Origin: Malassezia furfur
Taxonomy: Eukaryota
Strand: one strand, 5' to 3'
Assembly (NCBI GenBank): GCA_052055015.1
Contig: JBQJIT010000023.1
Length of the DNA: 59,323 bases
A program made the position numbers and the translations under genes. The notes below the pieces were generated by a model. It was not told the DNA's origin and searched no databases. It saw nothing but the letters and a program-made list of their open reading frames with translations. Shown piece by piece: positions 15,748 to 55,544 of this stretch (within the stretch, counting starts at the first letter, position 1; the number at the start of each line of letters is the position of its first letter).

Positions 15748-16184
15748 ATTGCTTTGTATCAATTCTGTTGCGTTAGCATATGTCTTCGGTACGGCGAAGA
15801 TATCGTGTGCGCGCCTGCCAGCATCCTCTGCTAAGGGCGAGGAGGGACGCGCGTACACGTCTTCCGAACCATACGTACAAGTTTGAGAAGGTTGAGCACC
15901 AGTGCGGTTTGTGGCAAATTCGTCGCCAACAATGGGATATACGAAGGTGAGTGGGCGACTGCAGGTATTCCTGAAACAGTCTCACAACACTCGGTGGAGA
16001 CGGCAAAGGAAGACGGGTGTCACGTCTCGAGCCAAAGGTGGTACGATGGCGCAAGGTTTGTTCGCGGCTCGGGTTCTTTACAGCCCCGTTGTTTGGCTGG
16101 TACGGCCGAAAGAGTTTTGCAATTAAGATGCTAGGCCCGCGTGCCGGAGCGTCCGATCGGGCTCCCGATCGCCCCAACGTGGAT

Positions 16185-35645: not shown

Positions 35646-36936
35646 ATGCTACCTCCACCTGCGCGGAAGCGTGCAGCATCGAACGACGCACGCATCTTGC
35701 AGCGGCCACGCGCCGAGGACGTGCGGTTGCCAGTGGTGCTCGAGTACCACCGTAACATTGCCCGGGCTACGGCGGTGGTGTGGGATGCGGCGGAGCCGGT
35801 GCGGTGCAATGTCTCCCAGGGAACGCTGACGCTGCGTGCCGGTGAGGCGTGCAATGTCCTGTCGCTCGATTGGCCGCTGGTCGACGGCGTATACATGGGG
35901 GAGGCACAGGACGGGGCCCAGGTGGTCACTTTGCCAGCGCACACCTCGCCGCCGCTCGCACTTGTGCCGCAGTCGCCGTGGCTGCAGTTCGCGTCGGAGC
36001 AGACTCCGGTTTTGGCCCTGGCATGTGCGGCGTGTGGAAGTACATTGATGCAGTGCAGCGGCGCGGCGACACTCCGTGCACTTCCGTCCGAGAACTGGGA
36101 GGAGCTCGTGGATGCGTGGATGTGCCACGGCGACCAACGCCTGAATGCGAGCGTCGTACAAGGGCGTGCGGATGTGGAGCCATCACGCACGCCAGAGCTC
36201 GATCAAATTTGGGTCGGTTCGCTGATGGTGCGCATGAATAGTGCGCAGCTGATGAATGTGCACGTCGCAGATGCTAAGATACCCGGCCCATGGGAGGTAC
36301 GTTTCATGGGGGGCATACCCACGGACCCGCAGAAAGCTCGCACTGGAAACCTACCGTGCGCGGCTGATACTAGGGTCCCAGATTTGGCATTTCACATACG
36401 CCGCGGCGCACGAGCCCCCCTGCACCGTGGCCACAAGGAATGCGACACTAACGCAGGGCGACGCATTCCCCGCATCTTGCGCGCAATGCTCGGCGGTGCT
36501 CGGTGCCGTGCCGGTCCACGACGCGCCGAGCGCCGCGCAACTGCTGCAGACGAGTGTGGTGCCGGTGCCGCGCACGCTGTCCTATGCAACCTACTTCTCC
36601 GAGATCCTTGCCAACTACCTCGTGGAGCAGGCAGACCGGCACGCCGTGCACCACTTCCTCATCCAAGCACTGGGTGCCGAGCCCCAGCCGCGCCTCTTCG
36701 TTTGGGTCTTCCAGCCGATCGTCGAGCTGTGCACCACCCAGCGGATGGCTGTGTGCAAAATTCTGTACCATACGAGCACGACACCCCCGCAGGTTCCCTA
36801 CCACTCCCTCACGCTACCCGCGACACAGTGCGACCTGCTCGCGCAGCTGCTCACCGAGAGCAACGCACTGTACCCCGCGGCACGCAAAAAACTCGCGCAA
36901 TGGCACGTAGGATATTTGCTGCGTACCCTTGTCTAA
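35646..36936 (+). CDS. IPA1: Ipa1/UBE3D (HECT_2 family) protein; one 160-nt intron 36297-36456
   Basis: LACAACG...LRALPSENWEELVDAWMCH is the family signature. Splicing GTACGT...CTAACGCAG restores WE|GDAFPASCAQCSAVLG and the C-terminal CKILY...SNALYP. Confidence 0.82.
36322..36450 (+). ncRNA. Intron-encoded box H/ACA guide RNA, snR81-like, predicted to guide U2 snRNA pseudouridylation
   Basis: Hairpin-hinge-hairpin-ACA layout. 5' pocket AGAA/GATACTA complements U2 UAGUAUC-[U]G-UUCU. AGATTT (degenerate H box) follows 14 nt after the upper stem; ACA is at 36445. Confidence 0.78.
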
Positions 36937-48904: not shown

Positions 48905-48997
48905 TGACCAGCACGGGGCTCGAACCCGCAACCTCCTGATATGCTCAGTCCAGTGGACTTTCGTAGTCAGACACACTACCAATTGTGCTAACCGGCC
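48905..48997 (-). tRNA. tRNA-Arg(ACG) with 20-nt intron (48941-48960)
   Basis: Cloverleaf GGCCGGT..GCAC/GTGT..TCTGA-CTACGA^A-TCAGG..GCGGG-TTCGAGC-CCCGT..GCTGGTC-A, followed by an oligo-T Pol III terminator. Confidence 0.95.
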
Positions 48998-49067: not shown

Positions 49068-49160
49068 TGACCAGCACGGGGCTCGAACCCGCAACCTCCT
49101 GATGTGCTCGGTCCAGAGGACCTTCGTAGTCAGACACACTACCAATTGTGCTAACCGGCC
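49068..49160 (-). tRNA. tRNA-Arg(ACG) second tandem copy, 20-nt intron (49104-49123)
   Basis: Exons identical to the first copy; T-run downstream. Confidence 0.95.
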
Positions 49161-55227: not shown

Positions 55228-55544
55228 CCTGCTGTAGATTACCTATGTTGTCACCGTTGTTTGTACGCGTTTCACTAGTACGGCTGACCAACGCACCGTG
55301 GCCCGATTGCCCGATGCACCCGTCCTCCCAATATCGAAATCACGTGATATTATAGTTTCTATCACGTGGAAGCGGTGGGACTAAGAAGCAGTCTTCTGCG
55401 GTGCCTGCGCTCTTACCTACCGTCGTCAAGGTGCGTGAGCGAGGCTGCGAAGTGGACATATGGGCACGGCGCTGGCGCGCAGTATCTGTATTCGACGACG
55501 CAGCACAACCACACTTGAACACATACTAACGAAACAGGCTCAAT

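Follow-up and report, generated by a model that had tools for sequence, protein, structure and literature searches.

A candidate box H/ACA guide RNA with a U2-complementary pocket in the long intron of a UBE3D/IPA1-like gene of Malassezia furfur

Why a single intron should remain long among very short ones is the question raised by a 59,323-nucleotide (nt) stretch of DNA from Malassezia furfur (contig JBQJIT010000023.1 of assembly GCA_052055015.1; hereafter the window), which has a G+C content of 62%. The window holds 23 intron candidates of 21-37 nt, defined by their splice signals with reading frames unchecked, which makes the 160-nt intron of a gene of the HECT_2 family, UBE3D/IPA1-like, unusual here. 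This intron is likely, in our view, to be the source of a guide RNA of the box H/ACA class, about 130 nt in length and most probably directed at the uridine of U2 small nuclear RNA (snRNA) equivalent to yeast U42. Across an alignment of 55 sequences, the residues of the guide pocket remain fixed while the stems around them vary. An original prediction, drawn up from the letters of the window, had placed such a guide in the intron of an IPA1/UBE3D gene and had put the other coding introns at about 21-37 nt; Pfam agrees with the host assignment, and the intron lengths hold approximately.

The predicted two-hairpin RNA and its conservation

Both exon translations of the host gene contain Pfam domain PF09814, and the best database relative of the protein, M. 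furfur CBS9595_001139, is 99% identical to it. The NCBI model of that CBS9595 protein (P0003) joins ..PWE|GDAF.. and hence has identical intron borders, with the GT at 36297-98 and the AG at 36455-56, and on this basis we take the 160-nt intron to be real. Folded without constraint, the 160 nt adopt a minimum free energy (MFE) structure of hairpin, hinge, hairpin and tail in which both hairpins carry internal-loop pockets, the two-hairpin architecture of H/ACA RNAs, and four helices of this structure show covariation. The stems, pockets, AGAUUU and ACA all lie at the coordinates given in the original prediction (Table 1), the MFE fold is identical to the one it described, and the spacing of precisely 14 nt from the upper stem of hairpin 1 to AGATTT holds as well. 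This distance is 15 nt in the Malassezia-like loci L001 and L003 and in most other relatives, and the predicted target uridine thus lies within the roughly 14-16 nt from the box that is usual for H/ACA guides.

To follow the intron beyond M. furfur we used 80 loci from metagenome contigs, chosen solely by protein similarity to exon 1. A first hint of conserved intron sequence lay in the read-through open reading frame tails of homologues after ..WE|VR.., and the same RNA was found in the same intron in 73 of the 80 loci (73 of the 75 informative ones; five loci end less than 250 nt past the protein match). A relaxed scan with the pocket scanner described below found 68 of the 73, and the remainder (L074, L017, L018, L023 and L028) were recognized through the 3' hairpin; GATAC and AGAA are present in these as well. 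Where its position relative to the exons was checked, in 25 loci, the RNA falls between the two exon matches given by tblastn in 24, and the 25th locus ends too early. Two loci, L011 and L060, lack an intron at this position, their coding sequence running on uninterrupted, and their DNA contains no copy of the RNA; there the RNA has either moved elsewhere in the genome or been lost. A scanner match at position 1358 of L011 was rejected, as L011 has no intron at that site, and GATACTA in L069, L072 and L076 was set aside as chance, since it overlaps splice signals (branch point and 3' splice site) that belong to a later intron.

Among these loci, L001 (= L002) and L003 (= L004) are Malassezia-like and encode proteins of 39-50% identity; the intron at this position measures 215 nt in the first and 199 nt in the second (Table 2). 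For the other loci the nearest named relatives are Marasmius tenuissimus (53%) and Tulasnella species (52%), and we therefore regard them as Agaricomycetes. Judged from this distribution, the arrangement of RNA within intron is older than the split between Ustilaginomycotina and Agaricomycotina. The original prediction had proposed aligning orthologous introns for conservation of the pocket and ACA residues and for covariation of the stems, and both are found in Malassezia-like fungi and in Agaricomycetes.

Covariation was assessed in an alignment (A3) of 55 distinct sequences, the window and 54 relatives, with 348 columns and a four-helix structure that had been fixed beforehand from one reference (L067) and from which 22 pairs were counted. 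Standard pairs form in 90.5% of the 1205 cells, compared with 33.5-47.4% after a shift of the 3' partners by 1-3 columns. Changes on both sides occur in 15 of the 22 pairs, double-change cells number 120 against 33.5 in shuffles, and none of 500 shuffles reached any of the five measures. Helix 1, the lower stem of hairpin 1, is paired in 99.6% of cells, with CG replaced by UA in 13 sequences and GC by AU, CG or UA in 9; helix 2, its upper stem, is paired in 95.5% and shows double changes in five of six pairs. When the three Malassezia sequences are folded jointly with RNAalifold, both lower stems are recovered and 8 of 32 pairs are kept through double changes.

The residues expected to act are nearly invariant within this alignment. 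The four AGAA columns are conserved in 54, 54, 55 and 55 of the 55 sequences and the five GAUAC columns in 55, 55, 55, 54 and 55, with the following sixth position being T in 10 and A in 43. Both adenines of the A.A core of the H box are present in 55/55 sequences; its sixth position is A in 41/55, the window being one of two sequences with T. The ACA box reads ACA in 50 of the 55, AAA in three and AUA in two, and its first and last A are universal (55/55).

Two more pieces conserved in Agaricomycetes lie in the upper part of hairpin 1, at about columns 24-50 and 108-140 of the alignment. The first reads CGTTGG ... C(C/T)AC-CAACG in Agaricomycetes, of which CTGG..CCTACCG is retained in the window; the second, a side hairpin GAAGCCC ... 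GGTTTT, is missing in Malassezia as well as in the L040 and L042 types.

Guide pockets and their candidate targets in U2

The part of U2 that recognizes the branch point is near-universally conserved. Against the U2 motif quoted in the original prediction, the two strands of the 5' hairpin pocket find their complements at U35-C41 (for GAUACUA) and U44-U47 (for AGAA), a total of 7+4 = 11 base pairs (bp) that leaves U42-G43 unpaired 14 nt before the H box; the 7+4 nt of pairing that had been claimed around the uridine targeted by yeast snR81 is thus reproduced. Three yeast pockets, that of snR81 among them, required no fewer than 8 bp and pairing on both sides (PMC6049503, in part), and the 11 bp counted here on both sides of U42-G43, measured against the general U2 motif, exceed this minimum. 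Most Agaricomycete copies carry GAUACAA, which gives 5 bp, one mismatch and 1 bp with U2, and compensate through a longer 5' strand, ..AAGAA or, in the L042 group, AGAAGAA. The U2 motif itself has no match within the window at up to two mismatches.

The specificity of this pairing was assessed with a scanner of our own that looks for hairpins able to pair with U2 through both pocket strands, the 3' one with U35-C41 and the 5' one, which adjoins the upper stem, with U44-U47. It further demands no fewer than 4 bp in the upper stem and 5 bp in the lower, with an A.A box 13-16 nt past the upper stem. Applied to both strands of the window it returns one site, the RNA of the 36297-36456 intron. With Watson-Crick pockets, none of 200 dinucleotide-preserving shuffles of the window gives any match; when G-U wobble is allowed, 36 of 200 shuffled windows do so (mean 0.185). 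Four distinct minus-strand matches in about 640 kb of locus sequence were taken as background.

The target of the 3' hairpin is less clear. The upper stem of hairpin 2 is flanked by (A)UA(A)C on its 5' side and by CAC on its 3' side in each of the three Malassezia lineages, both motifs being kept while the stems change, and the predicted substrate is (G/U)UGUG-UN-GU(A/U)U. In U2 this pocket would pair with G32-G34 and G37-U40 and leave U35-A36 unpaired, by 3+4 bp in the window and L003 and only with a bulged A in L001. U35 is the only target candidate seen for the Malassezia 3' pocket, with ribosomal RNA (rRNA) lying outside the comparison, and it is a weak one because pairing of 7 bp failed in yeast for the three pockets tested (PMC6049503, in part). 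The original prediction had described pocket 2 as fitting weakly around U35 and as possibly making the RNA a dual-U2 guide; the 3+4 bp in the window and the conservation of the pocket in Malassezia stand, and the length below 8 bp and the bulge in L001 speak against the inference drawn from them.

We regard it as possible, though rather unlikely, that the Malassezia 3' hairpin guides U2 U35 as well, beside or instead of Pus7. The conservation of CAC and AUAC around the upper stem in every Malassezia lineage would favor such a role, as would the Agaricomycete 3' pocket, which is complementary to the same stretch of U2 and for this reason may point to an ancestral U2-directed 3' hairpin. In these fungi ..AACAA precedes the stem and CUAC.. 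follows it (52-55/55), and the predicted 4+4 pairing joins CUAC to U2 G34-G37 and AACA to U42-U45, flanking U38-C41. However, this pairing is non-canonical, with four substrate bases unpaired and an A.C adjoining the stem, and in Malassezia the 7 bp of the window and L003 fall short of the yeast minimum. The apical loop of the 3' hairpin retains AG (53 and 50 of the 54 sequences with a base there), mostly preceded by G, and this conserved AG sits where the CAB box (ugAG) of the SCARNA15 family would.

The ACA box and the branch point have no spacer between them in the window or in L003 and are 4 nt apart in L001, while in the Agaricomycete copies tens of nucleotides of tail separate the ACA from the 3' splice site. 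Because the abutment is confined to the compact Malassezia introns, and because ordinary introns of 21-22 nt in the window share the CTAACGCAG ending, it looks like a by-product of an intron that has shrunk to a small nucleolar RNA (snoRNA) plus minimal splice signals. The same two observations leave without support the earlier suggestion that an ACA+3 end abutting CTAAC signals competition between guide assembly and splicing; steric competition with branch-point recognition is possible but finds no support here.

Feature coordinates and other elements in the window

Table 1. Coordinates of the host gene and of the parts of the predicted RNA in the window
Feature	Position	Strand	Basis or remark
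Exon 1, ATG to 5' splice site	35646..36296	+	open translation; PF09814 E 6.3e-14
Intron, 160 nt, GTACGT ... CTAACGCAG, holds the predicted RNA	36297..36456	+	NCBI model junction PWE|GDAF
Predicted mature box H/ACA RNA, about 128-131 nt	36320..36450	+	ends inferred from lower stem and ACA+3; fold, alignment with 54 relatives
Hairpin 1 lower stem, 5' strand GGACCC	36323..36328	+	fold; helix 1 covariation
Hairpin 1 5' pocket strand GCAGAA; AGAA predicted to pair with U2 U44-U47 (yeast numbering)	36329..36334	+	
Hairpin 1 upper stem and loop, AGCT-CGCAC ... GTGCG-C-GGCT	36335..36365	+	fold; helix 2 covariation
Hairpin 1 3' pocket strand GATACTA; predicted to pair with U2 U35-C41, U42-G43 left unpaired	36366..36372	+	
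Hairpin 1 lower stem, 3' strand GGGTCC	36373..36378	+	fold; covariation
H box AGATTT, 14 nt past upper stem	36380..36385	+	fits ANANN-, sixth base U instead of A
Hairpin 2 lower stem, 5' strand GCATTTC	36387..36393	+	compensatory changes across three Malassezia lineages
Hairpin 2 5' pocket strand ACATAC	36394..36399	+	relatives: AGATAAC (L001), TATAC (L003)
Hairpin 2 upper stem and apical loop; CGAG at 36411-14 resembles CAB box	36400..36431	+	fold
Hairpin 2 3' pocket strand CACAA	36432..36436	+	CACAC in L001, L003
Hairpin 2 lower stem, 3' strand GGAATGC	36437..36443	+	fold; three-lineage comparison
ACA box, 13 nt past hairpin 2 upper stem	36445..36447	+	conserved in alignment
Branch-point consensus CTAAC, directly 3' of ACA	36448..36452	+	sequence
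Exon 2, to stop codon	36457..36936	+	PF09814 E 1.6e-19

Table 2. Elements of the RNA compared among the three Malassezia lineages
Element	Window	L001	L003
5' pocket	GCAGAA	GCAGAAA	GCAGAA
3' pocket of hairpin 1	GATACTA	GATACTACG	GATACTACG
Hairpin 1 lower stem	GGACCC/GGGTCC	GGACC/GGTCC	GGGCT/AGTCC
H box	AGATTT	ATATCC	AGATGC
Hairpin 2 3' pocket	CACAA	CACAC	CACAC
Sequence after ACA	CTAAC	TGTACTAAC	CTAAC

At the 3' end of the host gene (36800-36936) the NCBI model of the M. furfur homologue (P0003) ends ..LPATQ|ATHCTPRHAKNSRNGT, which implies an extra splice or a frame change there. The uninterrupted frame of the window instead runs to ..GYLLRTLV*, resembling the M. caprae C-terminus ..GWLPRSID, and the deposited model may be wrong in this region.

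Elsewhere in the window, a signal-defined intron candidate of 107 nt at 55431-55537 (+), GTGCGT ... ACTAACGAAACAG, forms a single long hairpin, with an ACA behind it that stops 3-4 nt short of the branch point, and might be a further putative intron-borne H/ACA-like RNA. The same layout is seen in a 114-nt signal-defined candidate on the minus strand at 15765-15878, where a long hairpin with an internal loop is followed by ACA and then TATGCTAAC. Two transfer RNA (tRNA) matches on the minus strand, at 48905-48997 and 49068-49160, measure 93 nt each, both scoring 43.4 bits with a 71-position model, and presumably carry introns.

Competing explanations and the meaning of the RNA

Several observations weigh against a U2 guide in this intron. 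The energy of its fold is unexceptional (z = -1.82, with an equal or better fold in 7 of 200 shuffles), the H box AGAUUU lacks the sixth A of ANANNA, as do 14 of the 55 aligned sequences, and the 13 nt between hairpin 2 and its box, found in all three Malassezia lineages, lie at the short end of the roughly 14-16 nt of H/ACA RNAs. In L001 an extra A in the 5' pocket breaks the AGAA register and leaves 2 contiguous bp on that side, with 8-9 bp opposite. The pocket figures of 54-55 in 55 are partly built in, because the pocket motif was itself required by the scanner that selected the rows of the alignment; the unbiased count is the presence of the pocket motifs in all 73 intron-bearing loci among the 80 selected by protein. 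The U2 assignment depends on the near-universal U2 sequence. Lastly, Rfam contains an snR81 model, and no Rfam 15 family was matched in the intron (E<=10), in the window (at the gathering score) or in eight related loci (E<=1). The search with covariance models of snR81 and U2 small Cajal-body RNAs that had been proposed for this locus thus returned no match, and the description of the RNA as an unannotated snR81-like guide stands for its function, through the U2 pocket, and not for its family: because no Rfam 15 family matches, we treat the RNA as a functional counterpart of snR81 and not as a shown member of its family.

The RNA could alternatively be a genuine H/ACA RNA whose 5' pocket guides some other substrate, such as an rRNA site, its U2 match being a coincidence. 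That match was judged by a general U2 motif, and the GAUACAA of most Agaricomycete copies leaves only five contiguous pairs with U2 on that side. We nonetheless find this improbable, since the match spans 13 positions of the U2 branch-point recognition region, the uridine it leaves unpaired is the one guided by snR81, SCARNA4 and SCARNA15 (PMC6049503 and PMC5733568, both in part), and the U2-complementary residues are precisely those that never vary. The invariable location of the structure in one intron, together with the ACA lying 0-4 nt from the branch point in Malassezia, could alternatively reflect a conserved cis element that acts on the host precursor messenger RNA (pre-mRNA), in splicing or 3'-end control, with no guide ribonucleoprotein (RNP) accumulating. 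What is conserved, however, is the set of features of an H/ACA guide, namely pocketed hairpins, boxes at fixed distances and invariant U2-complementary pocket residues. The two species without the intron argue against an essential cis role, and conserved introns that bear snoRNAs are known in intron-poor fungi (PMC8476143, in part), so that we hold a cis element to be quite improbable. As for a chance fold of a long, GC-rich intron with accidental complementarity to U2, the modest folding score and the wobble matches in shuffled windows are what might be expected of it; yet 73 of 75 informative loci carry the RNA with compensatory changes and no shuffled window gives a Watson-Crick match. This last explanation has next to no probability left and, as far as sequence comparison can tell, is already refuted.

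The guide RNA that we favor can be set beside those known for the same uridine. Yeast snR81 is an independent gene whereas the Malassezia RNA is intron-encoded, and the two have no detectable sequence or model similarity (Rfam 15), yet both are two-hairpin H/ACA RNAs whose 5' hairpin forms a pocket around the same U2 uridine with U42-G43 unpaired. In S. cerevisiae the 5' pocket of snR81 serves U2 pseudouridine (Psi) 42, with U42-G43 likewise unpaired, and its 3' pocket serves 25S Psi1051 (PMC6049503, in part); the Malassezia 3' pocket gives no hint of this 25S role, rRNA lying outside the comparison. Within the excerpted parts of the published surveys, snR81 is traced only within Saccharomyces in a study of fungal snoRNAs (PMC5824354), no H/ACA targets are predicted in snRNAs of N. 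crassa (PMC2780460), and a screen for fungal structural RNAs covers Ascomycota only and leaves Basidiomycota out (PMC8216456). Our literature searches turned up no paper on the RNA described here.

Human SCARNA15 lies in a host gene other than the UBE3D/IPA1-like one, and it belongs to a family whose layout the Agaricomycete copies recall. The SCARNA15/ACA45 family comprises RNAs of non-eutherian vertebrates, Drosophila scaRNA:PsiU2-38.40.42 and C. elegans C50C3.14, which direct modification of the U42-equivalent through their 5' hairpin and of U40 and U38 through their 3' hairpin, the latter in part by a pairing that leaves three bases unpaired (PMC5733568). The fungal 5' hairpin is likewise placed at the U42-equivalent, and the predicted pairing of the Agaricomycete 3' pocket flanks U38-C41. 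Against this likeness, there is no Rfam match, the fungal 4+4 pairing has its A.C mismatch adjoining the stem, and the CAC and AUAC of the Malassezia 3' pocket do not present U38 or U40. The resemblance is one of layout, and common descent is not established by these sequences. Vertebrate SCARNA4/ACA26 also guides this uridine (position 41 in vertebrates) and rescues Psi42 in a yeast snr81 deletion (PMC5733568, in part); its target is the one predicted for the Malassezia RNA, but it differs as a Cajal-body RNA of animals. With respect to genomic setting, intron-poor fungi, Malassezia included, keep snoRNA-bearing introns such as those of RPL7 with snR59 and NOG2 with snR191 (PMC8476143, in part). 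As in those introns, position appears to be kept across fungi by the snoRNA carried, while the host here is a HECT_2, UBE3D/IPA1-like gene, not named in the excerpted parts of that study, and the predicted target is a spliceosomal RNA instead of rRNA.

A more far-reaching proposal, which we consider doubtful, would make this RNA the counterpart, in fungi, of the multi-site U2 guide of SCARNA15 type known from metazoans, resident in the UBE3D/IPA1-like intron since before Ustilaginomycotina and Agaricomycotina separated. Under it, the Malassezia 3' pocket would have slid from U38/U40 to U35, and the ACA, brought onto the branch point as the intron shrank, would couple production of a U2-modifying RNP to splicing of its host. 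If this were true, the ACA of the RNP would adjoin the very branch point that U2 itself must bind, within the gene of a 3'-end-processing factor.

For intronic H/ACA RNAs in general, proteins assemble on the nascent intron, and splicing, debranching and exonuclease trimming release the RNA. By analogy, Cbf5/dyskerin, Nhp2, Nop10 and Gar1 would assemble on the nascent host intron of Malassezia, splicing and debranching would free it, and exonucleases would trim it to a protected two-hairpin core ending 3 nt past the ACA. Through its 5' pocket the resulting particle would bind U2 to either side of a single uridine, the equivalent of yeast U42 and vertebrate U41, and Cbf5 would convert this uridine to pseudouridine. 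The intron would then have escaped shortening, in a genome whose introns measure 21-37 nt, because it carries an old, conserved RNA, and the guide would account for the one long intron with which we began. The RNA provides a concrete and well-conserved candidate guide for the U42-equivalent in Basidiomycota, and the at least 55 sequences assembled here could seed a covariance model for annotating such RNAs. A gene of this kind is to be expected and calls for no new mechanism; its main value lies in the depth of its conservation within one host intron and in its possible link to SCARNA15.

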